From NCBI GenBank assembly GCA_963793635.1, contig CAWCAX010000004.1, positions 1,276,004 through 1,340,003 on the forward strand: a DNA stretch of 64,000 bases, in the 5' to 3' direction. Both the position numbers and the translations under genes were made by a program. Positions 13,061 to 38,715 of the stretch are shown in pieces. How positions within the stretch are numbered: the first letter of the stretch is position 1; each line of letters starts with the position of its first letter. The notes under the pieces are model-generated. The model was not told the origin of the DNA and did not search any database. It saw nothing but the letters and a program-made list of their open reading frames with translations. Source of the DNA: an uncultured Planctomycetaceae bacterium (lineage in GTDB: Bacteria; Planctomycetota; Planctomycetia; Pirellulales; PALSA-1355).

Positions 13061-13078
13061 GCAAACAGCCGCACATCG

Positions 13079-13834: not shown

Positions 13835-13836
13835 AC

Positions 13837-18417: not shown

Positions 18418-18499
<82 letters not shown>

Positions 18500-18513
18500 T
18501 CTGATTCAACACA

Positions 18514-18550
18514 AAGGGCTTGCGGCAAATCGCTGCAAGCCCTTCTTCGT
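18514..18550 (+). terminator. Hairpin downstream of tRNA-Leu, a possible intrinsic terminator.
   Basis: AAGGGCTTGC...GCAAGCCCTT is a 10-bp stem followed by CTTCGTT. The U-tract is weak. Confidence 0.4.
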
Positions 18551-18569
18551 TGGCAAAATCGAATCTCCC

Positions 18570-19080
18570 TCAATTCTCCCCACTTTTTGAATCCGCAGGA
18601 TTTCCTTCGGGCTTCGATTTGGCGTTTTGCTGGGGGTGGCCATTCTGGTTTTGAATGGCGTCCATCACTTGGTCCGAGATCAAGGTCTCATTGAGATTAA
18701 CGTAGTGCTGCCGCATCGTTTCAGGGTGGCAGCCAAAGGCGATGGAAGCGGCGTCGTAACCAATCCCGGCTTGCACGGCCCTGGACATCGCCGTGCCACG
18801 CAGATTGTGGAGTTTGAATCGCTTCAATTCGGGATGGGTCCGCAGATACAAGCTGAGTTCGTCTTGGAGCCATTGCTTCAACTGCTGCGGCGTGAAGCGC
18901 TTAATCGTGGCCGCATGGTGCGGCATACCCCCTCATGGGTCTGCTGGACGTTGCGTGCAGGGAAGAAGAATCGGTCGATCATGACCCAAGTGGCCGCTGA
19001 CTTACCTTTGCCAGACGATTTTGATGATGCCGCTTTCTGCCGCTTGGGAATTGGACGCTTCTTTATTGGCGGGAGACTTT
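18570..19080 (-). pseudogene. Decayed tyrosine-recombinase (integrase) gene adjacent to the tRNA.
   Basis: ORF 18570..18926 has the C-terminal catalytic region LHNLRGTAMSRAVQAG...GCHPETMRQHYV. Upstream integrase-like pieces (KIVWQR, GKSAATWVMIDRFFFPARN) lie in other frames, with stops between them. Confidence 0.6.
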
Positions 19081-19112
19081 GAGGATTCCCGTGGGCGGAT
19101 CATCGCCGCAAC

Positions 19113-19346
19113 TTGTACCCGGACTCGTACTCGATCCAGGCGCACGCGGGTATTCCGAAGGCCCGGCAGTACACTTTCAAGGACTGCCGCAGCACGTGCG
19201 CGACGCAGTGGTTCGCGGATGGAGAGTCAAGGCTGGTGGTCAAGGACTGGCTGGGGCACGCTTCGGTGACGACGCTCGAACCCTTCTACGCTCGGATAGA
19301 GGCTGCTCGCCGTGCTGCCGCTGGTCGGCGAAAGGTGGTGGGCTGA
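19113..19346 (+). pseudogene. C-terminal remnant of a second integrase family (copy A).
   Basis: YTFKDCRSTCATQWFADGESRLVVKDWLGHASVTTLEPFYA. There is no N-terminal or core domain. Homology to copies B and C stops about 45 nt after the stop codon. Confidence 0.6.
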
Positions 19347-19451
19347 ATCTCAGGCGGCCTCGCGAAGTCTTCCGGCGTGATGCAACCCATTTCCATCAGC
19401 TGTGCCGCCCGGGCCGGCGAGCAGGCGCAGCCTCGTTGATAGCGCGCCGTG

Positions 19452-19913
19452 CTAGGACGAGCGGTTTCTGGAAAGCAGCGGAAAATCGATTTGGACTTCG
19501 CAGCCCGGCGAGTTTTGCGGCACGATAATTCGGGGCAGATCTTCTGGTGCCAACTCGGGCACGTAGCTCTCGCCTGGCGAGCGGGTGTAGGCCGAGGGGG
19601 GCGACTTCCAGCACTCGATATTCACCCGGTATTCTCCGGGATACAAGCCGTCGCCAGGGCGGAACGTGCTCGCCTTGAAGCGGCCATCCGTGCCGAAGGC
19701 TGCTCGACCAGGGCGCCGCGGCACGCCGGCCTCCCCCGCAATCGTGGCGAAATACAGCTCGCCCACCGCCGGCCAGTCGCCGCCACCATACGTGACCCGA
19801 CCCGAGACGGGCGTCAACTCGGGGTGCCGCGGGCGACAGCCGGCAACGAGCGCGCCGCACACGACCGCCAGACAGCCCGACAGACGTTGCCAAGCGGCGA
19901 GCCGGCCGGACAT
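19452..19913 (-). CDS. Small lipoprotein, a typical partner gene downstream of DUF1559 proteins.
   Basis: MSGRLAAWQRLSGCLAVVCGALVAGC carries a lipobox. Then a beta-sandwich-like VSGRVTYGG...GEYRVNIE. Confidence 0.6.
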   Translation of the reverse strand: MSGRLAAWQRLSGCLAVVCGALVAGCRPRHPELTPVSGRVTYGGGDWPAVGELYFATIAGEAGVPRRPGRAAFGTDGRFKASTFRPGDGLYPGEYRVNIECWKSPPSAYTRSPGESYVPELAPEDLPRIIVPQNSPGCEVQIDFPLLSRNRSS

Positions 19914-20004
19914 GGGCTGTCTCCGTTCCCGGTTGCGAATAGCTGTCATGGCTGGTCCCGTGGCAAGCCAAGCGGCATCTTGTTTGCGCTGCGCGAAGGT
20001 GCGC

Positions 20005-20982
20005 TTAGTCGGGCAGGTGGCAGATTTCGCCGCCGCTGCGCGTGCCCAGTTGGTTGTAAAGTTGATAGTTGATCGCCTCGTCAACGAAGTGTACGCTGCC
20101 GTCGCCGGTCACGAAGTTGGCGCCGCCTGGATGCCAGCTCTTGAAGCCGCAATCGCTGGCCCAGCTGCCCCAGACGGTCGACACGCTGCCGCCATCCGAC
20201 TCGAAGACGTTAAGCGGAGTGCCGGTGCCCGACAGGGGATTGTTGTTCGAATAGGCTCCCATCCAGACGCAGTCGCCAGGCAGCGATTCGCCCACCATCC
20301 AGGTGTTCGCCAAGCCGTCAGTCACGTCGCGAAACCGGACGATCGGCTTGGCGTCCCGACCGAACATGCCGACGGAGCTTCCTTCAGGATAGCCGTAACC
20401 CGGATCGGAACCATAGTTGTTCCCCTGGCAGCAGTAGTTGCCCGGGCTGGGCGTCGAGACCTCGCAAAAGAAACACGAATCCATTTGCGTCGGCCCGATC
20501 GATGCCGGATACCACAGCCCCAGCGCCAGCGGGGGGTTGTTTTGTGCGGCCCGGTCCATGATCGGATTGGGTACCGTCGAGTCGCTGGGACAGACATAAG
20601 TCGAGATCACGGTCTGGACCGCGCAGGTTGACTGGATCGCTCAGCGCGTAGTGAAAGTCGAATAATTCGTACGTGGATTGCTCCTCCAAAAAGGGCAAGA
20701 TCATCGCCGGCCACGTGCCGGTGCGCCCTTCTGCACGGTTGAATCCCAATAACCGGTGGCAAACGGCAACTGCTTGTGCACGTCGTGATAGTGGTGCATT
20801 GCCAAGCCGATCTGCTTGAGATGATTGCTGCATTGGGCGCGCCGGGCCGCCTCGCGCGTCGCTTGCACGGCCGGCAGCAACAGCGCTATCAGGATGCCGA
20901 TGATGGCCATCGCCACCAAGAGCTCCACCAGGGTGAAGCCCGCGGGGTGCAGTGCAGTTGTAGCAATCTGTCGTGCGCACAT
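20005..20982 (-). pseudogene. DUF1559 protein with a prepilin-type N-terminus and two compensating frameshifts as sequenced.
   Basis: N-terminus [53 protein letters not shown] (ORF 20701..20982). The middle [29 protein letters not shown] is readable only in the frame of ORF 20384..21175. The C-terminus VISTYVCPSD...HPGGANFVTGDGSVHF is back in the first frame (ORF 20005..20610). Confidence 0.7.
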
Positions 20983-20988
20983 GGTAAG

Positions 20989-22083
20989 TCAGTAGGAGTT
21001 GGGATCCAGAATGGCGCCATCCGTCGACAAATTCAGTTGGTCCCAGACGCCCAGATTGTTCCAACTCGTGCCCAGATTGATCGCGTCGCTCAGGAAACGC
21101 ACACTGCCATCGGCCAGGCAGACGTTCACTCCGCCGGCGTGCATGCTCCGCGCCGTCTGTTGCCAATTGGGCCAACTAGAGATGCCGTGATCGTCGGAAC
21201 AAGGCATCCCCAACTGGATCATGGTCGCCTCGGCCGGGCTGTCCTGCTGCGGTGCCAGGCCGGTGATTTGCGACTCGATCAACTCGCAGTTGGCGACGTC
21301 GTCGGCCTTGGGTGAGAGACAGTTTGGCCCGTTGTCGTCGCCTTGATAACCATGTTTATACAGCGCACTGGGACAAGCGCCGCTCATGGCCCAAACGCCG
21401 CGCGAGTCGATCGGAATCAGCCCGGCCCGCAGTTCGCCCAACAGGATCGTGCGGCTGGTGCCGTCGCTGATTTGCTTGATTCCGATCGAGATATCGGGAC
21501 CCATGATTCCGCGACACAGCGGATTGATCCAGGAGCTGTAAGCCAAATCTTCCTGGTCCAGGCTCCCGTTGGCGCCGTAATTGCCCCGGGCCCAATTGGC
21601 TCCGACTCCGAATTGCGTGCCGTCGAACGGCACTTGATTGTACACGTCGCTCGGACAGAGCATGAAGTCGAGCACCGTCCCCCTGGCGTTGGCGTTGGCC
21701 GGATCAGAGACATATTTCGACAAGTCGAACAGGTTGCTGACGTTCTGCCCCTCGATGTACGGCAGCACCATGACGACCCAGTTCTCGCTCAAGTTCGGCG
21801 TGTTGGTCGTATCGATGTCGCCCAGGCTCCTCCATTTGGACGAGGGTGGAAAAATGCGCCACACATCGTGATAGTTGTGCAGCGCCAGCCCCAACTGCTT
21901 GAGGTTGTTCGCGCACTGCGCACGGCGCACCGCCTCGCGCGCTGCCTGCACGGCCGGCAACAGCAGTGCGATCAAGATGCCGATAATGGCAATCACGACC
22001 AGCATCTCGATCAGGCTGAGTCCTCGCCTTCCGGCGTGCCGGGGCACATCGGGCGCGTCGAGCGAGGATTTCGAAAAAGACAT
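20989..22083 (-). CDS. DUF1559 protein with a prepilin-type N-terminal methylation motif.
   Basis: [53 protein letters not shown] ... MLCPSD ... HAGGVNVCLADGSVRFL. ATG 22083 is preceded by GGAAGGAG. Confidence 0.85.
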   Translation of the reverse strand: MSFSKSSLDAPDVPRHAGRRGLSLIEMLVVIAIIGILIALLLPAVQAAREAVRRAQCANNLKQLGLALHNYHDVWRIFPPSSKWRSLGDIDTTNTPNLSENWVVMVLPYIEGQNVSNLFDLSKYVSDPANANARGTVLDFMLCPSDVYNQVPFDGTQFGVGANWARGNYGANGSLDQEDLAYSSWINPLCRGIMGPDISIGIKQISDGTSRTILLGELRAGLIPIDSRGVWAMSGACPSALYKHGYQGDDNGPNCLSPKADDVANCELIESQITGLAPQQDSPAEATMIQLGMPCSDDHGISSWPNWQQTARSMHAGGVNVCLADGSVRFLSDAINLGTSWNNLGVWDQLNLSTDGAILDPNSY

Positions 22084-22227
22084 TACGACACTCCTTCCGC
22101 CCTTGCACGCAGGCACACGCACAGCTGTCGTCGCGGTTGGAGCCGCTGCCGGCAATGACCACGTCGGGATGCTGCGGGGCCTGGGCGCGCTGGAAGTGCA
22201 AAAACGCTCAAGTTTTGGTTGCCACGT

Positions 22228-23013
22228 TCAATCATTCCGCAGCACGCGGCGACGCCGCACCACGGCGAGCAATCCTAGCCCAGCCAGTCCACCAAGCACC
22301 AGCGACGACGGCTCGGGCACTACCTGCACCAATTGGATACCGTTGAAGTCGGCTTCTTGATAAAGATTATTGATCGCCTCCGAAGTGTTCGGATTGGGGG
22401 CGTAGGTTCCGCTGATCGTTCCGCCGCCAGACCCCACGGTGACACCGCGGAACAGGACGTAATTGTCTCCTTCACTGTAGGTGCTGTCCGTGGTATTCAC
22501 CGTGCGGTCGATGCCGCCGTCCGCCGTGCCACCGGTTACGGTGACGATCGTTCCCACATCGTGGAAGTCCCCGTTGACGGCATAGACGTAGACATCGTAG
22601 TTGCCCGCGGGAACATTGGTCAACGAAAAGTTTCCCACGTGGCTTGCAGCCTGCGTGGCCCAGTCGTCGAGCATGGCGTTGTTCGTCCCTGAGGCGTACC
22701 CGTAGCCGTTGTCTACCGAAAGGCCGACGGTCGTTGTTGTACTGCCATCCGATAGGTAGATCGTACCGCTGCTCGTAATCGGGTTCGTCGATCCAGAAGT
22801 GCCGCCATTGGCGGAATTCCAATAGGTTCCCGTGTCGGGGGCCGCCCCGACGCCGCTATAGGTTCCAGGGTTGTTGCCGCCGGCGGAGACGGCATTAATG
22901 TCGACGTCGAAATTCACGACAAACGGGGCGGCGCTCAGCGAACTCGGCGCGAACGAGAGGAGCAAGCTCGCAACGGCGGCGGAAATCAGATTCAGATGAA
23001 TGGTGCGTGTCAT
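22228..23013 (-). CDS. PEP-CTERM sorting-domain protein.
   Basis: Signal peptide MTRTIHLNLISAAVASLLLSFAPSSLSA. C-terminus VPEPSSLVLGGLAGLGLLAVVRRRR. Confidence 0.85.
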   Translation of the reverse strand: MTRTIHLNLISAAVASLLLSFAPSSLSAAPFVVNFDVDINAVSAGGNNPGTYSGVGAAPDTGTYWNSANGGTSGSTNPITSSGTIYLSDGSTTTTVGLSVDNGYGYASGTNNAMLDDWATQAASHVGNFSLTNVPAGNYDVYVYAVNGDFHDVGTIVTVTGGTADGGIDRTVNTTDSTYSEGDNYVLFRGVTVGSGGGTISGTYAPNPNTSEAINNLYQEADFNGIQLVQVVPEPSSLVLGGLAGLGLLAVVRRRRVLRND

Positions 23014-23513
23014 GGTTTGGTCCTAACTGGGGTTTTGTTGATCCGAGATTCTCGAAATGGATTGAGCCGGGAACCGATCCAGGCTCACAACACCTCACCG
23101 CTTTACATTGCGCTTGCGCGGAATCATTGGCCAAATAAGGAGCACCGCTCCACCGCAAGCTCGCACCGCGAAGACGGCGGCGCTAGGCAAGCAGTCGAAC
23201 GTCGAACGGCCTTGCAGAACCGATTTGAGGGTGATTGGGAAACGGATGGATTTGTGTTTCCGACACTCAACTACCCCGACCCCGGTGCCACTTTTTTGGG
23301 GGGATTCCCCCAAAATTCTCGTTGCCGGCACGCGTGGCCGCAAGCCTAAGGACCGTGCGACATTCTTACCGAACTTCGCGGCGAAATGATCCGCGAGCAG
23401 GATTTGTCACTAGCCCTCTCCGGCCAAGGTAGTTGAAAACTCACGCCAAGACTTGAAAACTTCGCGGCCCGAGCCGCCTGAAAATGTGAAGCTCAATCTA
23501 ATTCGGTCCGGGG

Positions 23514-25185
23514 TCATGGATCGCGCAGCTCCAGCACAGGGTCGCCCAGGCCGATCCAGTCCCCGCCGCTGCGGTCGCCGCCGTCGCTGGAGGCCAGCGT
23601 CAAGAATCCGTCGGAGCGATCCAGCGGCACATAGACGCCAAACGGCGTGTCCTTAATCGTGAAGCTGCGCCGCTCGAAGCGCGCTTTGCCGTCGACGATG
23701 ACGAAGAAGTCGGCCCTGGGAGCCCGATCGACGACGTCCGAGTTACCGACAATCGCCCGAAAGCCGCTAATGCGCTGTTTCCGGCCGCGCTGGAGACTAG
23801 CCAGATCGAGCGTCAGGCCGGCGTTGGGCAGCAACAACAAGAAACCGTGCGGGGGCTCGCCAAAATCCACATCCCCCAACTTGCTGGCGATCTGCCCCGG
23901 TTGGGTGCCGAACAATTCGCCCCCGGCACGAATGTGGTCCCAGGCATAGGCCGAGGTCTGCGGAAACTCGAACCGATGGCCGGCCGAGTCGATTTGCGTC
24001 GGGCCATCGGGCATGAAGCAGCCGTCCAGCACGCGGTGGTTGGGCGTGGGATGGTACTTCCCGTCGGAAGTGCGATTGGAAAAAGGGAGCGTGCCGAATT
24101 GCCCGGTCGCCGGATCGATCGCCAGGCCGCGGTTGCGGCCGGTGCCGTCGCCGCCGCAGAGCAAATCGACAACATCCAGTCGGTGCTCGTTTCCCAGCGC
24201 TGCCGGCTTGGGCTTATTGTCCGCGGCGCTAGCAAATCGCCCTGGGTCGGAATCGATGCTGCTCATCACGCCGGCTTCGCTGACGCGGATGGCCTGGCCG
24301 GCAGTCAAACGCACCGCCTTGCCGACCGGCCGGCGCGCCGGAGATAAATTGCCGACGGCGTTCCGCGGGCGCACCTCGGCGGCCCCCTCAATCAGATGCA
24401 CCTCGGCCTGACCGCGTTCGTCCACCTCGACGCCGAATTCGGTTCCCAGGTCGACGACTTCGATCCGCTCGGCCTCGACGGTAAAGCCAATCGCCTGCCG
24501 GGGCACTCGGGCCACTAGTTTGCCGTGTTCCATCCGCAACCGGCCTGGGGAGATAAATTCGAGCGCGCAGGGACCGACCGCGGTCACGTCGACACCGTTG
24601 TCGAAGCGGAATTTAGCCACGCCTCTAACCAACTCGAGCGCCTGGCCGGCGACGACTTTCGGGTCAGGCTGGGCGGCAGCGGTCTTCCAGACGCAGCCCA
24701 CGGGCTCCAGCAACTGCGCAATCGGCGCGCCGGCCTCGACGCCGCGCTCGGCCTCGTGCGGCGCCTGGAAGGCTCGATGGAATGCGACGGCGATCAGCAG
24801 ACTGACGAAGTACAACGAGAGCGCCGTCGCCACGACCACCGCCCGCATCTGCGGTGAGCTGCCCCCCCAGGCTGCCGTGCAGCTCGACCACAACCGAGCT
24901 GCCAAGGCCACTGCGCCGACCACGCCCGGCGGCAGCGCCCATCGTCGGCCAGGGGCAGTTCGAGCGGTGGCGCCGCAGCGCGCGGCGATTCCGGCGGCAG
25001 CCGATCGAGCCGGGCGCGCTCGCGCAATTCCTGGTGCAAGTCGAGGTAGTGGACGTAACGGCGGCGAGCAGCCGGATCGCGCGTCAGGATCGACTCGAGC
25101 GCACGATCTCGTCAGTCGTGGCCCGCTGATCCACCAGCCTGGCCAGCAGCCTGTCGAGCGGCAAGTCGGCAAGTCGCTCAGCCAT
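23514..25185 (-). pseudogene. FecR-like anti-sigma factor with a large extracytoplasmic C-terminal domain. Two frameshifts as sequenced.
   Basis: ATG 25185 (MAERLADLPLDRLLARLVDQRATTDEIVR), then LESILTRDPAARRRYVHYLDLHQELRERA in a second frame, then the TM segment MRAVVVATALSLYFVSLLIAVAF and the FecR region in ORF 23514..25223. The shifts are near 25100 and 24945. Confidence 0.7.
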
Positions 25186-25732
25186 GGTCCCATCCTTCCC
25201 GGGCCAGCGCCGCTTCGATGCAACCCAGCAATCGGCCGCGCAATTTCTCGACTATGTAGTACAACCGCCGCACATCGAGGCCGGCTCGGACTGCGTGCTG
25301 CTGCACGGCGCCGTGCTGGCCGTAACGATCCAGCAGCAGCGCGCGGTCGCCGTCGCTCAGCTTGCTGAGGCAGCTATCCAGCGCCCGCCGGCGCACTTCG
25401 AGCAGCGGCGATTCCTCCGCGATCGTAGCGTTGAGCTGCGCCACCAGCTCCTCGGAAAACAATACCCGTTCGCGGGCTTGGCGCTGCCGCGACTTCAGGA
25501 TCTCAAGATAGGCGAAGCGAATCGCCCAGGGGACGAAAGGCTGCTCGGGGTCAAACTCGTCCAGCTTCCGCCAGAGCTGGATCGACACCTCTTGCATGAC
25601 GTCTTCGGCATCCGCCTGGCGCGGCAACAGGAAGAAGACGTAGCGGCGAACCTGCGGCTCGGCTTGGAGCCACAATTCCTGAAATACTGCGTTGACTTGT
25701 TGCACGGCCTGGGCTCTCAAATGAACTAACAT
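25178..25732 (-). CDS. ECF-type RNA polymerase sigma-70 factor.
   Basis: Region 2: DAEDVMQEVSIQLWRKLDEFDPEQPFVPWAIRFAYLEILKSRQ. Region 4: LSDGDRALLLDRY...RRLYYIVEKLRGRL. It overlaps the anti-sigma start by 8 nt. Confidence 0.85.
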   Translation of the reverse strand: MLVHLRAQAVQQVNAVFQELWLQAEPQVRRYVFFLLPRQADAEDVMQEVSIQLWRKLDEFDPEQPFVPWAIRFAYLEILKSRQRQARERVLFSEELVAQLNATIAEESPLLEVRRRALDSCLSKLSDGDRALLLDRYGQHGAVQQHAVRAGLDVRRLYYIVEKLRGRLLGCIEAALAREGWDHG

Positions 25733-28341
25733 CCCCTCTACCAGATACTCCGCACAACGCTACAAATTTACAGAAGAAATTTCAAAAATGTGCCCATTCC
25801 AGGCGCCCAAGTGCGAAATTACGGGGCCAGCGGGGCACGACCTGGCGAAATCGGTCGTTCGGCGGCCCCAATCGGTTTGGAAGCTAAGTAAGTCGGCCTA
25901 TTGAGGCGCGACACTCCGGTTCGTACGGCCCCACTTGCCGGCCGCGCCGTTCGTGGCCCAGGAGCAGGTCGCTGCCAGACCGGCCGCGCTGGGTGCGCGG
26001 CGCTCGATTGGGGCATGCGCACTTGCTCGTGGCGGCAGGGGTGCTCGGAAAAAAATATCGCGCTCATCAACGGAATTTGTTGAAATCTTGCGGACATATT
26101 TGGGCGGCCCTGTTGTTGATGGTTAGCGGACCGGTCGTGGTCCGTTCTGGACGCTCGATTGCGCAGACATAAAGAATTCAAGGCACAGGGAATTGCCGCG
26201 GTGGGCAATGGCGAGCAGCTCGTGCTGTCGGCCGAAGTGGCTTTTGGCTCCAGCGGAGCCGGCCGCGGGGTTTCTGGCCGATCAGCGCGGGCCAAACCGC
26301 TAATTCGCAGCTCAGCTGGGCGGAGGCCCAGCCGTGGACTTCATGCTGTGGCGGAATCCTCTGACAACACCCCAAGCCAGGAAGTAAATCCTTATGATTA
26401 AGCTCTTTGCCATGTTCGGAAAGCGGTTCGCGAAAAAGTCTTCGGCCCGGCGGCGGCCCGCAATGGCTGCCAGTCGCCTGGCGCTCGCCCGCAACATGCG
26501 CCTGGAGCCGCTCGAAGACCGCCACCTGTTGTCGATCAACATTCCCATCTTAAATGGCAATTTCGAGTCGCCGACTTGGGTTCGAAAGTGGTAGCAGCTG
26601 GGTGCAACAGGCCGTGGCCCCCGGTACTCAAGCCCCGAACTACAACGAGCTCGATCCGCGCTTTGGCGTGCCCGGTTTTGCCAAGACGGCGCAGGGCTAT
26701 GGGGGACCCGGCCCGAACGGCGAAGGGATGTACAGCGAGCGCAACGATCCCACCTGGTTCAACTACGTGAACGGGCAGTTGCCGGCGCCGGCCAATGGCA
26801 CCAATTTCTTTTCCCTGATTCCGGCCCCGGGCGGCACCTACCACTTCATGGTTGACCAGCAACCCAACACCACGGGCGATGCCGGGAACCACGGCGACAT
26901 CAACTATCCGCCGATGATTGCAGCCACAGTCGCCCGTGCCGGCGAAACGTACCAGGCAACGGTGGCGCTGGGCAATCCGCTCGTGAACGCAAGCAACGTA
27001 GCGTTCCCCGATGTCGAGCTCGACCTGACTCTGGGCGCAGGCACTTATTACACGCCCAGTTATACGAATAGTTACAACTACACGACTGGCACCACGAACC
27101 CGCCTCAGTCGGGTGACACCGGGCTGGATTACCAGGGTTACGGTACGGCGGTCGCGTCGGCGTTTTCGAACACCAGCGTCGATCCGACCTGGCAACTTGC
27201 ACCGGGAACCTTCAAGGATCTGACGGTCACCTGGACCTGCCCGACCCAGGACGATGGCATGCCGCTAGACATCCAGATTGTCTACAACGGCGTGTCGGTG
27301 CCGACGGCCATGGACAACATCCGGCTGGTCGACATCACCACGCCGCCGACGGCTCCCACCGCCGTGGTGGCCGCGGGCGCCAACACGAGCCAGATCAACG
27401 TCAACTGGACCGACGCTGCGACCAACGTGACGGGGTATCAGATCGACCAGTCCACGACCTCGGATTTCAGTTCGGGCGTGACCACCACGACGGTGGGCGC
27501 CGCCACGCCCTTTTACACCGCTACGGGATTGTCGGCCAGCACCACCTACTACTTCCGCGTACGGGCTTATAACGGCGCCGGCGTCTCGGTGAACACCGCC
27601 ACGGTGAACGCAACGACCGGCTCGGGTGGCACGCCTGTTTCCGTCAACGTGCCCGACGGCAATTTTGCGAACGATTCGCCGGGCAACGCCATCAACTCGA
27701 ATTCCGGCGGCGGCGTGACATTCACTCAGCCCATGACGGGCACGCTCGCGGGTTGGGCCCTCAGTGCCACTCCGAGCACGGCCCAGGGCGGTTTCTACGC
27801 CGACTGGCAGCCGTTTGGCGTGGTCGACAATGTCACCAGCGGCAACGGAGCGGGTCCGCTCTCCAACAACGCCCCGTGGCTCGCCAATCAACCCGCGTCG
27901 ACGTATAACGCATTCATCTATTATCCCGGCGAACAGTACAGCGACGGTACGGTCGTGACGGGGGCCCAACCGGGCGCGAGCCTGACCATGACCTCGACCG
28001 GCATCAATGCATCCGCCGTGGCGGGGACGACCTACACCGCGTCGATTCAGTACGGCAACGTGAGCTGGGCCAGTGCCAATGTCAACCCTTCGGCAAACGT
28101 GGCGTTCAACATTCTGGCCAATGGCGTCGTGGTCAGCTCGAGTCATTACACCGGGTTGGCTCAAGGTGCGCCTTGGACTCCGATTACGGTGGGCTGGGTG
28201 GCCGATGCGGCGCACGCCGGCCAGACAATCCAGCTCCAGGTCGTGGCGAAGAATTTCCTCGAAGGGCCCGTCAATCAATGGGAGGTTCCGACCTTCGGGT
28301 TTGCCAGCACCACGCTGACGGCCGCCGCGGCCCAAGGCAAT

Positions 28342-29196
28342 CCCCCGGCAGCTCCCAGCGGTTTGGCGGCCAATGTCGCCTCGTCGAGCCAGATCAATCT
28401 AAGCTGGACCGACAACTCGAACAACGAGACCGGTTTTGCCATCGACCAGGCCACCAGTGCCGACTTCTCGCAGAACCTGACCACGGTCTCCGTGGGCGCC
28501 AACATCACCACATACAGCGCAAGCGGCCTGTCGGCCAGTACCACCTACTACTACCGCGTGCGGGCCATCAACGCCGTCGGCAACTCGGCCAATTCCAACT
28601 CCGCCAGCGCCACCACCCAGGCCGCCGTACCGGCACCTCCCAGCGGTTTGACGGCCACCGCCGGCTCGTCGAGCCAGATCAACCTGAGCTGGACCGACAA
28701 CTCGAACAACGAGACCGGTTTCAAGATCGACCAGTCTACCGGCTCTGATTTCTCGCAGAACCTGACCACCGTGACCGTGGCCGCCAATACCACCTCGTAC
28801 AGTGCCACCGGCCTGGCCGCCAGCACCACCTATTATTACCGCGTGCGGGCGACCAATGCCGTCGGCGACTCGGCCAATTCCAACACCGCCAACGCCACCA
28901 CACAGGTAGGCATCCCGGCGGCTCCCAGCAGTTTGACGGCTACCGCGGCTTCGTCCAGCCAGATCAACCTGATCTGGACCGACAACTCCAACAACGAGAC
29001 CGGTTTTGCCATCGACCAGGCCACCAACAGCTCATTCACCGCCGGACTGACCACTTACAACGTGGGGGCCAACGTCACCAGCTACAGCGCCTCCGGACTG
29101 GCCGCCAGCACCACTTACTACTACCGCGTGCGGGCGGTCAACAGCAGCGGCAGCTCCGCCAACACCGCCAGCGCCAGCGCCAGCACCATGGCAGCC
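28342..29196 (+). repeat. Three tandem 285-bp FN3-coding repeats.
   Basis: The block TGGACCGACAACTC(G/C)AACAACGAGACCGGTTT recurs at 28401, 28686 and 28971, a 285-nt period. Confidence 0.85.
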
Positions 29197-30202
29197 GGCA
29201 CCATCACCGTTCCCGACGGTGACTTCTCCGCCGACTTGGCCGGCTACGTGATCAACTCGAATACCGGCGGCGGACTGACTTTCACCTCGCCCATGAACGG
29301 CACGCTCTCGGGCTGGTCGATCTCGGCCAATCCTAGCAGCGCAAACGGTGGTACCTACTCGGGCTGGGAGCCCTACGGCCTGGTTGACAACATCACCAGT
29401 GGCAATAGCGCCAGCCCGTTCAATTCAAACGCGACCCTGATTGGCAATCAGCCGGCCTCGAACTACAACGCATTCGTCTATTACCCTGGCGAGCTCTACA
29501 ACAACGGCAGCGTAGTGGGCGGAGCCCAGCCGCATGCCAAGCTGACCATGACCACCACCGGCATCAGTGCCAATGCGATCGCCGGCAACACCTATACCGC
29601 GACGATCCTCGTCGCCAATGCCAGTTGGAGCAGCGCCGCCACGAATCCCGGTGCCAATGTCGTCTTGAATATCCTGGCGGGCGGCGTAGTGGTAGGCACC
29701 GGCACGCTCTCGGGCCTGGCCCAGAATTCGCCCTGGACGCCCGTCACGGCCACGTGGACTGCCGGCTCCGCTACGCGCCGGCCAGTCGATCCAGTTGCAG
29801 GTGGCGGCCAGCAACTTCCTCGAAGGGCCGGGTACCAGCCAGCAGTGGCAGGTACCCACGCTCGGCCTGGCCAAGGCCACGCTCTCGACCGCCGTGCTGA
29901 GTGGCCTGCCCAATGCTCCCGGCAATCTCACGGCAACGGCCGCTTCGGCCAGCCAGATCAACCTGAGCTGGAGCGACAACTCGAACAACGAGACCGGGTT
30001 CGCCATCGATCAGTCTACCAACGCCAACTTCTCTGCAGGACTGACTACCTACAATGTGGCCGCCAACACAACTGCCTATCAGGTGACGGGCCTGGCGGCC
30101 AATACCACGTACTACTATCGCGTGCGGGCGGTCAACAGTAGCGGCAGCTCGGCCACTACCACGACGGCCAGCACCACCACCACCACGGGCGGCGTGATTA
30201 CG

Positions 30203-31588
30203 GTTCCGGACGGCGACTTTAGCAACGACTCGCCCAGCTACGTGATCAACTCGAACACCGGCGGGGGTCAGACCTTCGCTTCCCCCATGAGCGGCACGCT
30301 TTCGGGCTGGTCGATCACGGGCAACCCAAGCACCGCAAATGGAGGTACCTACGCCGGTTGGGAACCGTATGGCCTTGTCGACAACATCGTCAGTGGCAGC
30401 AGCGCCAGCCCGTTCAGCACCAACGCGATCTTCATCGGCAATCAGCCAGCTTCCAACTACAACGCGTTCGTGTACTACCCTGGTGAGCTCTACAACAGCG
30501 GCAGCGTAGTGAGCGGCGCCCAGCCCAGCGCCAAGCTGACCATGAACACTACCGGCATCAGTGCCAATGCGATCGCCGGCAACACCTATACTGCCACGAT
30601 CCTGGTCGCCAACTCCAGTTGGAGCAACGCCGGCACGAATCCCGGCCCCAACGTCGTGCTGAACATCCTGGCGGGCGGCGTGGTGGTGGGCATCGGCACG
30701 CTCTCGGGCCTGGCACAGAATTCGCCCTGGACACCGCTGACGACGACCTGGACGGCCACCTCGGCCAATGCCGGCCAAGCGATCCAGTTGCAAGTGGTCG
30801 CCAGCAACTTCCTCGAAGGACCGACTCAATGGCAAGTTCCCACGCTCGGCCTGGCCCACGCCACGCTGACGTACGCCGCGCCGGTTGCGATTCCCGTGCC
30901 CGATGGCAACTTCGCCGCGGACTCGGCCAGCTACGTGATCAACTCGAACACAGGCGGCGGTCAGACCTTCACTTCGCCGATGAACGGCACGCTCTCGGGC
31001 TGGTCGATCACGGCCACGCCCAGCACCGCCCACGGCGGCACGTACTCGGGCTGGGAGCCGTACGGCCTGGTCGACAACATCACCAGTGGCAACAGCGGCA
31101 GCCCGTTCAATTCGAACGCGACTCTAATCGGCAATCAGCCGGCCTCGAACTACAACGCGTTCGTCTACTACCCGGGCGAACTCTACAACAGTGGCAGCGT
31201 GGTAGGCGGAGCCCAGCCGATTGCCAAGTTGACGATGACCACGACCGGCATCAGTGCCAACGCCGTGGCGGGCAACACCTATACCGCCACGATCCTGGTC
31301 GCCAACGCAAGCTGGAGCAACGCCGCCACCAATCCGGGCGCCAATGTCGTGTTGAACATCCTGGCCGGCGGCGTGGTCGTCGGCACCGGCACGCTCTCGG
31401 GGCTGGCACAGAATTCGCCCTGGACCCCGGTCACGGCCACCTGGACGGCCACCTCGGCGAACGCCGGCCAGGCGCTCCAGCTTCAGGTGGTGGCCAATAA
31501 CTTCCTCGAAGGGCCGGGCGCCAACCAGCAGTGGCAAGTCCCGACCCTCGGGCTCGCCAATGCCACGCTGACAATGCAACCCAGCGGT
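30203..31588 (+). repeat. Two tandem 693-bp module repeats (A3, A4). Paralogous copies A1 and A2 start at 27649 and 29209.
   Basis: The module starts GT(G/T)CC(C/G)GA(C/T)GG lie at 27649, 29209, 30203 and 30896. A2, A3 and A4 are near-identical at the protein level. Confidence 0.8.
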
Positions 31589-32053
31589 CTGCCGGCCGCT
31601 CCCAGCGGTCTGACGGCGACCACCGTTTCGGCAAATCAAGTTAACCTGAGTTGGACCGATAATTCCAACAACGAGACTGGCTTCGTCATCGACGTGGCGA
31701 CGAACAGTTCGTTTACCACAGGCCTGACCACGTACAGCGTGGGTGTGAACACGACTGCGTACCAGGTGACGGGATTGAGCACGCACACCACGTACTATTT
31801 CCGGGTGCGGGCCGTCAACGGCAGCGGCAACTCGGCCGAAAGTGCCACTGCCAGCGCCACGACCAACTGACCTGAGCTGTTTGACTGATAGATCAGGGCT
31901 GAAGTTTTGATCTTGGGCCGGATCCATTTTTTTGATTCAGACTACTTCAGGTCCCGTCAGGGCCGGCGGCGTGTCTTTCGGCGCGAAGGTGTTGCGGCTC
32001 TGAGCGGCGCGTAGCGGTCCGTTTAGAAAAGGCTTCGGGTTAGTCGGCAGTCG

Positions 32054-32340
32054 GTGGTCAACGTCCCCAAAAGGCAGCGCTTGATGCTCGTGCGAATCCA
32101 GTCCTGGTCTGGACCTGCCCCCAGTGACGACACCCAGGTTAAATTTAGGATTTCCAGGTTCTGTAGCTCGGCCTTGAACGGGACTATCTGCACAATAAAA
32201 ATAGCTACGTCGTTCTGTCGGCCGATCGCGGCGGGGAAGCCGACACTGGTCGTGAAGGACTGATTTGACCATCCGTCCGTGACGACGCTGGAACGGTTTT
32301 ATGCTCGGACGGAGGGCCTCCACGGGGATGCCGTAGGTCG
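32054..32340 (+). pseudogene. Integrase C-terminal remnant (copy B), with an internal stop.
   Basis: GKPTLVVKD*FDHPSVTTLERFYARTEG is homologous to copies A and C and has an in-frame TGA. Confidence 0.45.
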
Positions 32341-32450
32341 GTGGAGAGTGTCGGCTGAATCTCAGGAGGTCTCTCGAAGTCTTCCGCCGTGATGCAACCG
32401 GAGGTACAACAGCGGGTGATGAGTCGGGCGCCGCCGGAATTTTCGGCGGT

Positions 32451-32502
32451 CTTAGGATCCAGAACCCGAAAGGGTGTGAGGGTTCGACTCCCTCCTCTCG
32501 CA
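32451..32502 (+). repeat. att-like copy of a tRNA-Leu 3' half (variant variable arm and T stem).
   Basis: CTTAGGATCCAG-AACCCGAAAGGGTGT-GAGGGTTCGACTCCCTC-CTCTCGCA. It has the same anticodon-loop start and acceptor 3' strand as the tRNA at 18418. It is preceded by the hairpin GCCGCCGGAATTTTCGGCGGT. Confidence 0.6.
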
Positions 32503-32664
32503 CTTACCCGCAACTTCCCTCCGCTGCCCTCCAAAGCCCGACAAAAACGGGCTCGGAGCGGCAAGAGGGTTCGCCGCAAGAACAGCCAGCCGGAGGGAAG
32601 GCGAGGGAAGCGGAAAGAGCCTGCGGGAGCCTTCGCGGTACTGCGGCAGGTACTGCAAGACCTG

Positions 32665-32892
32665 TCAAGAGCCGCCCCCGAGCCGCGCCTCCAAGCCTGC
32701 CCGCAGAGCGTCCGGACTCGGGCTCGCGTAGAACTTCTCGGTGGTGGCCACCGTGCTATGGCCCAGAAAGTTGCGGACCGTCAGCGTCGGCGTGCCCGCG
32801 TTAATCATCGACGAGCCGGTCGACGATCGACAGTCCTTCAACCGGAAACTGACCTTAGCCAGCGTCTGGATCGCGGCCCAGTCCTCGTACAT
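32665..32892 (-). pseudogene. Integrase C-terminal remnant in inverted orientation.
   Basis: FRLKDCRSSTGSSMINAGTPTLTVRNFLGHSTVATTEKFYA. The frame stays open upstream (RAARTTNLRAAIRDQ...), but no complete N-terminal domain is present. Confidence 0.55.
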
Positions 32893-33330
32893 CCTACGGA
32901 TGTCGACACCCAGTTGTAGACATTGTTGATCGCGTATCGCCGCCCGAAGATTGGTAGTTCTCGCGGCTCGGGAGAACGAGTGCCGAGAAACGAACCATTT
33001 CCGAGACCGAGTTAGAAATCCTACCCGACGGCCAACCCTGCCTAATGTCGGCTATTGATTGCTTTCGGCGCTGATTCTCAGCTCAGGAGCGGAGTTAGCA
33101 AGTGCCATTGCATGCTCGCGCACCGCTCAGTCCCGCAAATGCAATCCCAACGAGGGGATTCTCACGGCACAACCTTTGCTTGTTCTACGGGTCGCATGAT
33201 TTGATGGCGGAAAACCCACAGATAGTCAGTTTGGGTTGACTGTTGGCCCATCACCTTGGCCGCTACGGATTCAGATTGGGGCATGCCGCTCCATGCCGAA
33301 GCGGGCCATTTTCTTTAGGAGAACATTCAC

Positions 33331-33552
33331 ATGGCGATTCAAATGGCGGAAAAAAAGAAGCACGCTGCAAGCGAGCACCATCATGCTGCCGCTGCACACC
33401 ATACGGCAGCCGCGCATCATCATCTTGAAGCGGCACACCATCACGAGATTGGTGAGCATGAAGAGGCGAAAGTACATGCTGCGTCGGCGCAAGAGCATTG
33501 CGACCACGCCGACAAGCACACAAAGACCGCCCATCAGCATTCGCAAAAGTAG
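33331..33552 (+). CDS. Small histidine-rich protein (19 His in 73 aa).
   Basis: AGGAGA lies 8 nt upstream of the ATG. Sequence EHHHAAAAHHTAAAHHHLEAAHHHEIGEH. The local DNA is visibly less GC-rich. Confidence 0.6.
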   Translation: MAIQMAEKKKHAASEHHHAAAAHHTAAAHHHLEAAHHHEIGEHEEAKVHAASAQEHCDHADKHTKTAHQHSQK

Positions 33553-33618
33553 CTGCGTCTGCTCACGATAAGCGGTATTTGCGTCGGGTCCTGATTTAAC
33601 CAAAGGAAGCGGAAGACC

Positions 33619-33714
33619 ATGGATACTCAACTAATCATCTTGATCGTTGTACTGTTCCTGCTATTTGGCGGAGGTGGCGGATACTATTGGAGCCGCGGCC
33701 GCGGGCGCGGGTGA
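33619..33714 (+). CDS. 31-aa DUF3309-like small membrane protein. It is not in the ORF track because it is under 60 aa.
   Basis: MDTQLIILIVVLFLLFGGGGGYYWSRGRGRG, a single TM followed by a Gly run and a basic tail. Confidence 0.45.
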   Translation: MDTQLIILIVVLFLLFGGGGGYYWSRGRGRG

Positions 33715-33860
33715 GGCAGTCAAGCGTCGAGACTTGGCAGGATGTCCACCAAGGAGCCCAGTCAGCCTAGGCCGAAATGGCAATAGTCTGTAAGGACGCG
33801 TCGCGCCAGTTTTAGTGGATAGGCTTTACGAGAACAATCTCTAGAAAAGGTGTCGCCATC

Positions 33861-34040
33861 ATGGGTGGCAAGACAGACGAGGTGAAAGGCAGAATCAAGG
33901 AAGCTGCCGGCGTATTGACCGGCAACGAAAAACTTCGCGCAGCGGGTAAGACTGACCAGGCAGTCGGCGAGGTCAAGCAAGTCGCAGAGAGGGTCGTTGA
34001 CAACGTCAAGAAAGCCGTCCAGAAGACCGTCGACGGCTAA
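33861..34040 (+). CDS. CsbD-family stress protein (59 aa, not in the ORF track).
   Basis: MGGKTDEVKGRIKEAAGVLTGNEKLRAAGKTDQAVGEVKQ matches the CsbD pattern KGK.KE..G..TG...L..EGK.DQ..G. Confidence 0.7.
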   Translation: MGGKTDEVKGRIKEAAGVLTGNEKLRAAGKTDQAVGEVKQVAERVVDNVKKAVQKTVDG

Positions 34041-34332
34041 GAAGGACCAAGGGGCCGACGAGCGAGATTGTCCGCACGCAGACTAAGCAGGCCGATAAGC
34101 ATTCCGACAAACTCGTGCGAACATGTGTCGTCGACTCCCGGTTTGCCCCGATGAACGCAATCAAGGCCGTCCGGTGCCCAATCAGCGCTTGGCGGTCATT
34201 TTTCTTGCGTTCGTTGCGTCGTCGCACCGGCACACAACGGGTTGCGTAGCTGCACTTCGCAATTCGGAGAAGCGAAAGGGTTGCCCGCCGGTCAAACGGT
34301 TACAAGGCCACGCATTTTTGGAAGGTTCTCAC

Positions 34333-34542
34333 ATGAGCAAGAAACTACTAAACCGGGGCTCGCGGTTCGCGGTACTGCTGCTCGGGGCGGTCGCGGTCTT
34401 TGCCGGCTGCGAAGCCAAGGGGCCTGCCCAGCGTGCGGGCGAGAATGTCGATAAAGGCGTCCAGAACGCGAAGGACGCGATCAATCCTCCCGGCCCTGTG
34501 GAGAAGGCGGGGCGGAGCGTCGACAAGGCCCTCGACCGCTGA
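34333..34542 (+). CDS. Small lipoprotein.
   Basis: MSKKLLNRGSRFAVLLLGAVAVFAGC carries a lipobox. It is an internal ATG of ORF 34123..34542. Confidence 0.55.
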   Translation: MSKKLLNRGSRFAVLLLGAVAVFAGCEAKGPAQRAGENVDKGVQNAKDAINPPGPVEKAGRSVDKALDR

Positions 34543-34743
34543 GGCATGTCTTGTTGCTGCGGGTGCTATAGATCATTCTTGGCAAGTACGCGGCATTCGG
34601 TGGAACGGTGTGATCTGAAACTGTTTCTTAAGAATTCGTCCGCGTTGCTGCACTCCCGAAAAACCACCCGTTTGCGTGACCGAGTCCATATCCAATAGCT
34701 CCAGTCATCAGTTCTCCCAACTTACCTAGCTCGAAACGGCGAG

Positions 34744-35121
34744 CTAATCAGCCGTTTTAGGTTCGCCCGCCAACTCGCAAATCCGCTCAACGAGCTTGTC
34801 GAAACCGATCGTCCCTTTGACAAGAAAGTCTACCGCGCCCAGCCGCTTGGCTTCGGTCATAGTTTTGTGCTGGATATCTGTCGAATACATCACGACCGGC
34901 ACGTCTTTCAGTTCTGTGTGCTCCTTGATCGATTTCAGAACAGTTAGACCGTCCATTTCGGGCATGTTGACGTCGAGCACCACCAGCGCCGGCTTGCGGA
35001 TGTGGAGCATCGCCAACGCCTCGGCGCCGCCCGTGACGGAAACGGCTTCGTGACCGGCGTAGCGGAGAAGGCGTTCGAGGCCGGTGCCGATGTCTTTCTG
35101 GTCGTCGACAATCAGGATCAT
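34744..35121 (-). CDS. Single-domain CheY-like response regulator.
   Basis: MILIVDDQ ... LVVLDVNMPEMDG ... PVVMYST ... FLVKG. Confidence 0.85.
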   Translation of the reverse strand: MILIVDDQKDIGTGLERLLRYAGHEAVSVTGGAEALAMLHIRKPALVVLDVNMPEMDGLTVLKSIKEHTELKDVPVVMYSTDIQHKTMTEAKRLGAVDFLVKGTIGFDKLVERICELAGEPKTAD

Positions 35122-35127: not shown

Positions 35128-36310
35128 TCACATGCTCTCGATGTGTTCCGCATCTAATATAGGCTGCCCGACTCTCGGCGCGGCTTCGCGCGGCAGATCA
35201 ATAGTGAACAAGGTGCCCTCTGCCGCAGTGGAAGTCACATCGATTCGTCCGCCGTGCGACTTGGCAACTTCGCGGGCGATGTAGAGCCCCATGCCGATGC
35301 TGCCGGGGCGATTTTTCGTCGGATGTTCCGCGCTGGAGCCGCGAATCAGCGGGTCAAAGATTTTCGGCAACTCGCCCGGTGGAATGGGCTCGCCGCCGTT
35401 GTGAACGTCGATGAAGACGTTCGACGTTTCGCCACGGAGTGAAAGCGTGACCGGGAAATCCGCCGAGCCGTGTTGAATGGCGTTGCCCAGGAGGTTGGAG
35501 ATGGCCTGGCGGATGCGGTCGGAATCCCACAGGCCGTTCAAGTCGCCATGCGTGCGATATTGAATGTCCCGCTTGGGGTGACCGGTGCGGAATTCTTCGA
35601 ACAGTTCTCCTGCGAGGCTTCCGAGGTCTAATGGCGCGGGTTTGACGGGCATCCCTGCGCCGAGCCGAGTGCGGGTATAGTCGAGAAGGTCAGCGATCAT
35701 GCGTTCCATGACCGACACGTTGCGGGTGATCTGGTGGCTACAGGCAATGGCCTCGGCGGGATCTTTGCAGACGAGCGGCACCATGTGCGCCGTCATGCCG
35801 ATGGAGTTGAGCGGATTGCGCAAATCGTGACTGAGGATGGCCAGGAACATGTCCCGCGCCTGATCAACGCGCCTGGTGTAACTGGCAACGGCTTTCGCGA
35901 TAGACTGGTCGATCGATTCATTGAAGCGAGTGAGGTCATCGACATCGCGCTCGTCGGCACCAGGCGAACTGATCGTGCCAAAGTCGAAGCACGCTAGCGC
36001 GCAGGGCGCGGTATTCGCTCATCACCTCCAGCAAGTCAAACCCCAGGCCCAGGCGATCGACAGCGTGCGATTTGGAGGCTCCGTCGAGGGCGTCATTTTC
36101 GTGGTGATCCAGTCCCTTGGATTTCTTCACCCGCTCTGCGGCGGTTTGAGGCGACTTCATGTCCCGCGCGGTGGCTTTCAGGATTTGCCCGGCGTGGTCG
36201 CGCAGCGCGAGTTGGTCCAGATGTTCACCCGCGCCGATGCTCCGCGCGAAGGTTTCCCACTCGGCCAGGATAGGCTCGACGTTTGACAGGATAAAGTCAG
36301 CAAGACGCAT
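35128..36310 (-). pseudogene. Sensor histidine kinase (RsbRD-N-like sensor + HisKA + HATPase). One frameshift as sequenced.
   Basis: N-terminal ORF 35936..36310 reads ILAEWETFARS...LRDHAGQILKA...EYRALRASVLRLW. C-terminal ORF 35128..35850 reads FLAILSHDLRNPLNSI ... GNAIQHG ... GMGLYIAREV. The linker SSPGADERDVDDLTRFNESIDQSIAKAV is readable upstream of Met35850. The join is near 35965-35980. Confidence 0.75.
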
Positions 36311-37671: not shown

Positions 37672-38715
37672 CTAGGTCGTCAGGGCTGGCGCTGTACTGC
37701 AAGGATCGCTCCCGCTACAGGTCCGATTGCGGCCGCTGACTTTGGCTCGATACAGGGCGGCGTCAGCCCGAGCGATCAGGGCTGCGCGATCCAGCGTACT
37801 GTCAATCATCGTGGCAGTGCCGATGCTAACGGTGACGGGCCGTAGGTCCCACGGTCCCGTTTCCACGGCCCGACGCACGCGCTCCGCAACTCCCGCGGCG
37901 CCTTCGTATCCGCAGTCGGGCAGTATGACTGTAAACTCTTCGCCGCCATAGCGCGCGACCAGTGCGTCGGAGCGGTTTGCGCCGACGAGAATCCGGGCGA
38001 CTTGCTTTAACGCTTCATCACCCGCAAGGTGCCCGAATTGATCGTTGAATTGCTTAAAATGGTCAACATCTATCAACAACATTGAAAGCGGGGAGCCGTT
38101 TCGCGTGGAGCGGGCGTACTCTCGTTCGAGCGCTTCCTGAAACCCACGCTGATTGGTCACACCGGTCAGACCGTCGGTCATTGCCAGCGACTCTAGCCGC
38201 GCGTTTGCGTCCGCCAAATCGGAGTTACGGCGTGCCACTATGCGCTGAGTGTTGACCAGCTCATTATTTAAGCGAGTGAATTCGTCCAGCATCGCTTGTT
38301 CGCGCTGACGGTACGCTGCCGCCTCAATCTGTTCCTTTTTTAACGTCATCCTTAGCGCGTTCAGTTGTTCGTTCTGGATCTTCATCATCTCGTCGAAACA
38401 CTTGTTCAAACCCTCGCGGGACGGGGAGCCGCAGATAATGATGCCTTCGTCCGTGACTCCTCCGGTGAGTACCAGGCCCATCAATTGGCCATCGCGGTGC
38501 ATGTTCAATTCCCAGCCGAACGTGGCACGCGATTCGATGGCCGCCTGCAGAAAGTTCTGAGCCTTCTCTCGGCTCTGTTGATCTACGATTCCGAAGAGCG
38601 TCGATGATGAGCCATTTCCTGCGACGATTCCTAGATCGTCTCGGATGACCCGTAGGATCCCGCCGGACGCATCGCATTGCAGTACGATGCCGGACTCGCC
38701 GTCCTGGGCATTCAT
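37672..38715 (-). CDS. Diguanylate cyclase (N-terminal sensory domain, coiled coil, GGDEF).
   Basis: DGLTGVTNQRGF, LLIDVDHFKQFND, RYGGEEFTVIL, YRAKVSGRN. ATG 38715 overlaps the upstream stop (ATGA). The ORF-track start at 39171 is an Arg-rich overextension. Confidence 0.85.
   Translation of the reverse strand: MNAQDGESGIVLQCDASGGILRVIRDDLGIVAGNGSSSTLFGIVDQQSREKAQNFLQAAIESRATFGWELNMHRDGQLMGLVLTGGVTDEGIIICGSPSREGLNKCFDEMMKIQNEQLNALRMTLKKEQIEAAAYRQREQAMLDEFTRLNNELVNTQRIVARRNSDLADANARLESLAMTDGLTGVTNQRGFQEALEREYARSTRNGSPLSMLLIDVDHFKQFNDQFGHLAGDEALKQVARILVGANRSDALVARYGGEEFTVILPDCGYEGAAGVAERVRRAVETGPWDLRPVTVSIGTATMIDSTLDRAALIARADAALYRAKVSGRNRTCSGSDPCSTAPALTT

Follow-up and report, generated by a model that had tools for sequence, protein, structure and literature searches.

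The contig CAWCAX010000004.1 of an uncultured Planctomycetaceae bacterium (NCBI GenBank assembly GCA_963793635.1; GTDB lineage PALSA-1355 in the Pirellulales) carries a 5.5-kb gene for a long repetitive protein, which we analyzed computationally together with its surroundings in a stretch of 64,000 nucleotides (positions 1,276,004 to 1,340,003 of the forward strand). This whole stretch is called the window, and coordinates are counted from its first letter. An earlier note, made from the letters of the DNA without database searches, had described at 26394-31870 an adhesin-like gene in which 693-bp modules of an unrecognized family are interleaved with fibronectin type III (FN3) units, and had taken the modules for recent duplicates. 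The module is a new and rare sequence family within a well-known fold, and the protein that carries it is of a familiar modular, extracellular kind.

The modular gene and its domain layout

After removal of two single inserted bases, window positions 26394-31870 (+) form a single gene of 1824 codons and a stop codon, with the corrected coding sequence 26394-26582 + 26584-29772 + 29774-31870 and no internal stops. The sequence as it stands divides this gene between two component open reading frames (ORFs), 26554..30141 and 29795..31870, both on the plus strand and in different frames, and a third frame that starts at the ATG at 26394, reads MIKLF...RLEPLEDRHLLSINIPILNGNFESPTWV and then stops. 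A Shine-Dalgarno-like AGGAAG lies 9 nt upstream of this ATG. The following features were assigned, in order.

26394..26534, +: leader, non-canonical N-terminal, residues 1-47, ending RLEPLEDRHLLS; motif of the planctomycete-extracellular type
26535..27330, +: N-terminal beta-sandwich domain, ILNGNFESPTWV...MDNIRLV; distant module paralogue, HpiC1-like below threshold
26583, +: frame break 1, extra base in gtt[c]gaa, between the codons for V63 and E64
27331..27624, +: FN3 unit 1; member of the repeat family, FN3 consensus YYFRVRA
27640..28329, +: module A1, divergent first copy, 61% amino acid identity to A2-A4
28345..29199, +: FN3 units 2-4, exact 285-nt tandem (tandem-repeat search, Pfam fn3), 74-84% nucleotide identity
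29200..29896, +: module A2, which holds frame break 2 (repeat search, module alignment)
29773..29777, +: frame break 2, extra base in GCT-ACGCG-CC, in the conserved SA(N)AGQxIQLQV segment
29909..30193, +: FN3 unit 5 (repeat search)
30194..30880, +: module A3, the copy used for modelling (AlphaFold2 model, Foldseek)
30887..31582, +: module A4, immediately 3' of A3 at 693-nt spacing (repeat search, module alignment)
31592..31870, +: FN3 unit 6 and stop codon, the gene end

Beyond the leader, all of the 1824 residues are covered by five jelly-rolls resembling carbohydrate-binding modules (CBMs), namely the N-terminal domain and the four modules, and by six FN3 units; the corrected protein is rich in T, S, A, G and N and has one Cys. 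A repeat search returned six FN3-sized copies of 285 nt, starting at 27346, 28345, 28630, 28915, 29909 and 31592, and four module copies, starting at 27642, 29202, 30196 and 30889, the final two exactly 693 nt apart, and Tandem Repeats Finder (TRF) gave a period of 285 nt with 3.0 copies at 28345-29196. The six FN3 units align with one another, and unit 2 matches Pfam fn3 (PF00041) at 40.7 bits (E 2.8e-10), above the 25-bit gathering cut-off. The corrected frame, the repeat search and TRF bear out the single modular gene and the domain order proposed in the earlier note, and the module motifs quoted there were all found, with A1 departing in two of them (DWQPFGVVDN and QWEVPTFGFASTTL). Beyond FN3 unit 6, a tblastn search of the downstream DNA with the C-terminal domains of homologues as queries found neither an anchor nor a discoidin or dockerin; a lost C-terminal domain was rejected as a candidate, as this search returned no remnant.

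Fold, relatives and history of the modules

The module, of ~225 residues, had no match in Pfam, NCBIfam or PDB, either as a single sequence or as a profile. An AlphaFold2 model of module A3 (model md615b6fe9302), for which an 11-sequence family alignment served as input, is an all-beta jelly-roll with a predicted local distance difference test score (pLDDT) of 79 and a predicted template-modelling score of 0.84. When this model was compared with the PDB by Foldseek, the top 26 matches were all Stig cyclases (HpiC1, FamC1, FilC1 and HpiU5; E 1e-7 to 4e-6), with a probability of 1.00 for the HpiC1 structures and template-modelling (TM) scores mostly of 0.65-0.70 on target length. After the cyclases came CBM4-2 of the Rhodothermus marinus xylanase (1K42; E 3e-5, TM 0.67 on target) and, further down, EngBF CBM-like domains and CBM22 (4XUP, 4XUO and 2WYS, at E ~1e-3). 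HpiC1 has itself been described as having a CBM4-2-like fold, with the same CBM4-2 as its closest structural relative and with the CBM scaffold and structural calcium in common (bioRxiv 10.1101/173674).

Pfam HpiC1-like (PF22825, gathering cut-off 27 bits) gave no hit to modules A1 and A3 even at E<=1. It appeared below threshold in 4 of the 11 rows of the module-family alignment made for A3 (best E 2.7e-5), rows that include flanks and within which the hit positions were not located, and no CBM model was among the Pfam results at E<=1 for the window modules or for these rows. The N-terminal domain scores 23.7 bits against the same PF22825 cut-off. With trimmed alignments, hhalign aligned this domain with the module profile over its full length and in register (85% probability, E ~1e-6), untrimmed ones having matched via FN3 flanks only. 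The model of the N-terminal domain is of low confidence (pLDDT 53), and given this value its Foldseek list, in which HpiC1 comes first and is followed by CBM22, CBM4-2 and CBM16, counts as supporting evidence only. By profile comparison the N-terminal domain is a distant paralogue of the modules, and the module, as modelled, represents an uncommon and as yet unnamed branch of the HpiC1-like / CBM4-CBM22-type fold, a known fold class. The remark in the earlier note that the module family could not be recognized holds to the extent that no named sequence family (Pfam, NCBIfam, PDB) includes it, but the module is not of an unknown kind, its fold being a CBM-like jelly-roll near HpiC1, CBM4 and CBM22. 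The note had also suggested a fold prediction on one module as a check, with a match to a well-known CBM or lectin family of defined function as the outcome that would tell against it; the CBM-like fold comes near to that outcome, but no family with a defined ligand was matched.

The Stig cyclases HpiC1 and FamC1 (PDB 5WPR, 5YVK) are the best structural match to both module A3 and the N-terminal domain, yet they have 15-18% sequence identity to the module and ~200 residues as against ~225. They are free dimeric enzymes encoded in the hapalindole cluster, whereas the window modules occur as four copies in a secreted multi-domain protein; in HpiC1 the catalytic residue is Asp214, with a Tyr101/Phe138 pocket and two structural Ca2+ sites (bioRxiv 10.1101/173674). 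CBM4-2 (of R. marinus Xyn10A) and CBM22 have in common with the module the beta-jelly-roll, the N-terminal strand motif x-N/D-G-x-F and tandem use in modular extracellular proteins; the module differs from them in being ~60 residues larger, with long conserved loops, without an attached catalytic domain here and without a CBM Pfam match.

The module family is rare. A word-indexed search of 5.8 billion proteins yielded 33 module matches, and an exhaustive profile search of 1.84 billion cluster representatives yielded 79. The module occurs in one metagenome-assembled genome (MAG) among 185,579 species-representative genomes, and a module-profile scan of metagenome contigs of the Joint Genome Institute (JGI) added only one locus, of 1.65 kb; no close relatives of the N-terminal domain appeared in the metagenome scan. 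Most module matches are short fragments from ENA assemblies with contig_N naming. The match with a genome record, MFD09286.bin.2.138, bears a Microflora Danica sample code, and the terrestrial MAGs of Microflora Danica are Nanopore-only Flye assemblies that received one round of Medaka polishing (PMC12313526). We presume that the sister ENA assemblies are also from Microflora Danica, because their accession numbers are neighbouring and their contig naming is the same. The homologous genes in these assemblies are broken into many frames.

Intact module genes are found on the JGI contig Ga0683294_0000752 (94 kb, here L003), in whose source organism the family forms a local cluster of several genes. 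P0036, a 1762-residue protein and P0035 are encoded in tandem at 10001-24428, P0013 and P0015 elsewhere on the contig, and an NPCBM-melibiase gene lies nearby. P0036 (1475 residues) combines two bona fide PF22825 domains (132 bits), which are in equivalent positions, with FN3 units, two modules and a dockerin; in P0035 (1503 residues) a large N-terminal domain is joined to FN3, a tandem pair of modules and a discoidin. In another relative, P0039, a GDSL esterase stands alongside the module. The partner domains in relatives, F5/8 type C (discoidin), dockerin, GDSL esterase and PEP-CTERM, are glycan-related or anchoring. Closest to an orthologue is the intact 1762-residue protein (L003:14541-19829), which consists of a leader with LEQRQLLS, the N-terminal domain, FN3, M1, two FN3 units, M2, FN3, M3-M4 and a discoidin, and which is 73% identical to the window protein in the N-terminal domain and 60-70% in the remainder. 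It differs in having two rather than three middle FN3 units, an F5/8 type C end in place of an FN3 end, and no frame breaks. Single-domain PEP-CTERM proteins, P0013 and P0015 with the module and P0097, P0098 and P0102 with the N-terminal-type domain, can be aligned over the full length of the domain and have only that domain between a classical signal peptide and a PEP-CTERM tail, without FN3 and without repeats.

The leader of the window protein scores only 13 bits (E 0.085) with Pfam Planc_extracel (PF07595), the cut-off being 25.5 bits. The motif RLEPLE(D/Q/A)R(H/Q)LLS is kept at the same place in the relatives P0094, P0095 and P0096 and in the L003 proteins, and (R)LEPLExRxLLS of the large proteins sits where the small single-domain PEP-CTERM relatives have their classical signal peptide. 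Because the motif takes the place of that signal peptide, we suggest that it has a role in export, and we infer from the sequence that the window protein is exported. A homologue in the MAG MFD09286.bin.2.138 (contig_58787; loci L002, L004 and L005), which is labelled 'uncultured Acidobacteriaceae bacterium', has a planctomycete-type leader, LRLEPLEARQLLS; either the leader motif also occurs outside the planctomycetes or there is reason to doubt the label or the binning of this MAG.

Modules A2-A4 are 82-85% identical to one another in DNA and 83-88% in protein. The Nei-Gojobori method gave proportions of synonymous (pS) and non-synonymous (pN) differences of 0.40-0.45 and 0.07-0.10, a synonymous distance (dS) of 0.57-0.68 and a ratio of non-synonymous to synonymous distance (dN/dS) of 0.13-0.18, while dS between A1 and the other modules is above 1. 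The differences are mostly synonymous and the modules are under purifying selection, as the earlier note had judged by eye. Its term 'recent' does not stand, with dS ~0.6, a longest identical run between modules of 25-41 nt, and the same domain order in the 60-73%-identical homologue from another assembly. Such runs are as expected from shuffling the same differences, which are evenly spread. Recent gene conversion was rejected for want of long identical tracts.

A neighbour-joining tree of 22 modules, with bootstrapping on 18 of these, places A2-A4 in a clade of their own (100% bootstrap). A1 groups with M1 of the L003 homologue and a third sequence (66% support), and M2-M4 of L003 group with modules of the neighbouring gene P0035 (62% support), apart from A2-A4 of the window. 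The domain order is common to both lineages, yet the later modules cluster by lineage; they were either duplicated independently into the same layout or homogenized by old gene conversion, with dS ~0.6 accumulated since. The duplication or gene conversion proposed in the earlier note is compatible with the lineage-specific clade, which fits duplication as well as homogenization, but not in the form of a recent conversion tract. We consider it probable, jointly with the functional reading given below, that the copies stem from old duplications under purifying selection and that A2-A4 were duplicated or homogenized within their lineage.

Frame breaks and genomic neighbourhood

The frameshift that the earlier note had placed at about 29775, in the SANAGQ.IQLQV segment of module A2, as diagnosable by the sister modules was recovered in a four-module DNA alignment with three-frame translation as a 1-nt insertion at 29773-29777 (GCTACGCGCC in A2 versus GCGA-ACGCC in A4), and a second 1-nt insertion was found at ~26583. 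At that site the window sequence gives PTWV and then, in the following frame, ESGSSWVQQAVAPGTQA, and the intact L003 homologue has PTWVESGSSWVQQAVAPGTQA; intact homologues continue across this point as TWVESGSSWVQQ and VWVQSGNSWVQQ.

At least three further breaks occur in the window, giving a total of about five indels in 64 kb, in three genes. In a large gene for a secreted protein at 2418-5601 (+), the frame switches at ~3061 through what looks like one inserted nucleotide ('..LEFDSSATGAG' and then 'DRIVTWDGPNSS..'); its product carries the leader RRLGYESLEGRIVLTA, five DUF11 domains and a domain resembling SdrD_B/CarboxypepD_reg. A DUF1559 (planctomycete prepilin-like) paralogue at 20041-20940 (-), just downstream of an intact copy at 20989-22155, runs through frames -2, -1 and -2, that is, with two breaks in ~1 kb. 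Whole-window scans of GC3 phase and of self-trained codon usage were noisy and confirmed only the switches at 29.7 kb and 3 kb; other breaks were sought through the Pfam completeness of ~30 ORFs and by tblastn with paralogues.

We slightly favour the view that the two 1-nt breaks of the modular gene are consensus indel errors of a long-read assembly rather than signs of inactivation. The C-terminal part of the gene is on record in NCBI and ENA as a 595-residue protein (P0034) on a contig of 3,210,292 bp, which is therefore a long-read assembly, and about five indels per 64 kb are compatible with the quality of a Nanopore-only consensus. The closest relatives come from Nanopore-only, once-polished assemblies and show breaks of the same type at much higher density than the window. 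The gene bears no further decay, its 1824 codons being stop-free and each unit intact in composition and conservation.

That the breaks are real, and that this is a recently inactivated pseudogene of a modular surface protein within a wider decay of expendable surface or multi-copy genes, is nevertheless a serious possibility, if short of a probable one. All five breaks are confined to the modular gene, the secreted-protein gene with the switch at ~3061 and the DUF1559 paralogue, three expendable, multi-copy or surface-type genes, whereas ~20 other, housekeeping genes of the window have full-length Pfam matches (malic enzyme, aminotransferase, acetolactate synthase and decarboxylase, MoxR, DUF58, BatA, a DUF1559 protein, BBP7 and others), a distribution that would equally fit real pseudogenes. 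Neither break of the modular gene lies in a homopolymer longer than 3. No same-strain sequence in which the breaks could be compared was found in the public collections scanned. Programmed frameshifting was rejected, the three +1 sites having shown no common slippery motif when compared.

It is most improbable that the repeat array is an assembly artefact, whether through collapse, expansion or chimerism of copies. Long repetitive genes are known to invite mis-assembly, and one break lies inside a repeat copy, but the modules (82-85% identical, longest run 41 nt) and FN3 units 2-4 (74-84%) are unambiguous for assemblers, collapse being implausible because no long identical stretch exists among the copies, break 1 is in unique sequence, and the independent JGI assembly holds a homologue with the order N-terminal domain, FN3, M1, FN3 units, M2, FN3 and M3-M4.

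The +1 sites at 26583, 29773-29777 and 3061 each overlap a short palindrome (TTCGAA, CGCG/GCGC and GATC, respectively), typical methylation motifs; the overlap could be accidental in a genome of 62% G+C or may reflect methylation-linked basecalling error.

Planctomycete markers in the window are DUF1559 with the N-terminal methylation motif N_methyl, the porin BBP7 and the LEPLEDRxLLS motif. Upstream of the modular gene, divergent from it and separated by a 660-bp spacer, lies a pair of regulatory genes, of which the first encodes an extracytoplasmic function (ECF) sigma factor.

25178-25732, -: ECF sigma factor (Pfam Sigma70_r2, E 6e-14)
within 23514-25223, -: FecR-type anti-sigma protein with a C-terminus like the glycan-binding NPCBM domain, overlapping the sigma gene (Pfam FecR, E 1e-4; NPCBM, E 2e-5)

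From its position, this pair may regulate the modular gene; a scan of 25.6-32.6 kb for promoters and terminators yielded nothing informative. A gene at 22228-23013 (-) encodes a small secreted protein with a C-terminal PEP-CTERM, the anchor class seen in the single-module relatives, and a weak match to fn3_3 (polysaccharide lyase 4 domain II). The ~2.8 kb 3' of the modular gene (31871-34740) have a lower G+C content of 0.58 and contain no Pfam-matched ORF, no Rfam match and no repeats; the Rfam search gave only a tRNA. Beyond 34740 come a response regulator (34744-35121, -) and an ORF for a sensor-less HisKA/HATPase kinase (35128-35850, -). At 13079-15525 (-), an N6/N4 DNA methylase ORF whose end holds the first part of a GIY-YIG domain overlaps an ORF in another frame with a fuller GIY-YIG; this could be a further frame break or a restriction-modification gene fusion. 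At 37672-39785 (-), an ORF with a B12-binding domain shares ~460 nt, read in another frame, with an ORF for a GGDEF diguanylate cyclase; the two could be parts of a single light/B12-sensing cyclase gene interrupted by a frame change, or separate genes, one with an over-extended start.

Proposed function

We suggest that the gene probably encodes an exported modular protein of ~1824 residues, surface-bound or secreted, whose five jelly-rolls among six FN3 units bind glycans multivalently. The jelly-rolls would bind a glycan or another extracellular polymer via their conserved loops, the FN3 units would space them, and several weak sites would cooperate by avidity, the outcome being capture of polysaccharide or attachment of the cell to it; expression may be under the neighbouring ECF sigma/anti-sigma pair. 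Across 21 modules the loops are conserved as strongly as the beta-strands (0.73 versus 0.74), and because of this the putative binding site probably uses loops, in which the motifs NSNTGGG.TF, PSTANGG.Y..W.P.G, YYPGE and NFLEGP..QW.VP are conserved. More tentatively, the module may found a new, narrowly distributed ligand-binding family (which for a glycan ligand would mean a new CBM family in CAZy), with a site formed by unusually conserved loops and with the copies of a gene under concerted evolution while their domain order is retained across species.

Several observations weigh against a glycan-binding surface protein. No ligand, binding residue or calcium site was identified; the top structural neighbours are enzymes, the Stig cyclases, and not lectins; neither a catalytic domain nor a recognizable cell anchor is present in the window protein, whose Pfam results include no anchor model, which leaves the term 'adhesin-like' of the earlier note unproven; and the sigma/anti-sigma pair was not found beside the loci of homologues.

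A purely structural component of the surface or matrix, whose jelly-rolls self-associate through protein-protein contacts without an external ligand, is an unlikely alternative to glycan binding. PEP-CTERM is linked to exopolysaccharide and biofilm matrix, and the stand-alone versions of the domains carry it. The T/S/A/G/N-rich composition with a single Cys would also suit such a role, and HpiC1-type domains dimerize and oligomerize with calcium (bioRxiv 10.1101/173674). The co-occurrence with discoidin and GDSL esterase, on the other hand, points to carbohydrate.

Still more doubtful is that the modules are catalytic rather than binding, either Stig-cyclase-like or akin to a jelly-roll polysaccharide lyase or hydrolase. 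The Stig cyclases are the best structural neighbours, a PL7 alginate lyase appears far down the Foldseek list (E 1.5e-3), and acidic and polar loop residues are strongly conserved (YYPGE, NFLEG). Yet four tandem copies alternating with FN3 are typical of binding modules and not of enzymes, the cyclases have a low sequence identity (15-18%), TM-scores to lyases are only 0.25-0.3, and the partner domains of the relatives are themselves binding or anchoring. No hapalindole-type indole-isonitrile biosynthetic genes were present among the window genes scanned, about half of the total, which comprise the sigma/anti-sigma, PEP-CTERM and DUF1559 genes, an esterase and housekeeping genes.

We retain multivalent glycan binding as the probable function of this protein. 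The finding has no bearing on any long-standing question, and it illustrates how long-read consensus indels fragment large repetitive genes for surface proteins into several 'hypothetical proteins' in databases. If binding is confirmed, a small new family would join the superfamily of CBM-like and HpiC1-like jelly-rolls, and a domain that is now unannotated in MAGs of soil planctomycetes, and possibly of acidobacteria, would receive a name. The gene also provides an example of repeat evolution within a gene, in which the first module is common to the window protein and its homologue and the later modules follow their lineage.

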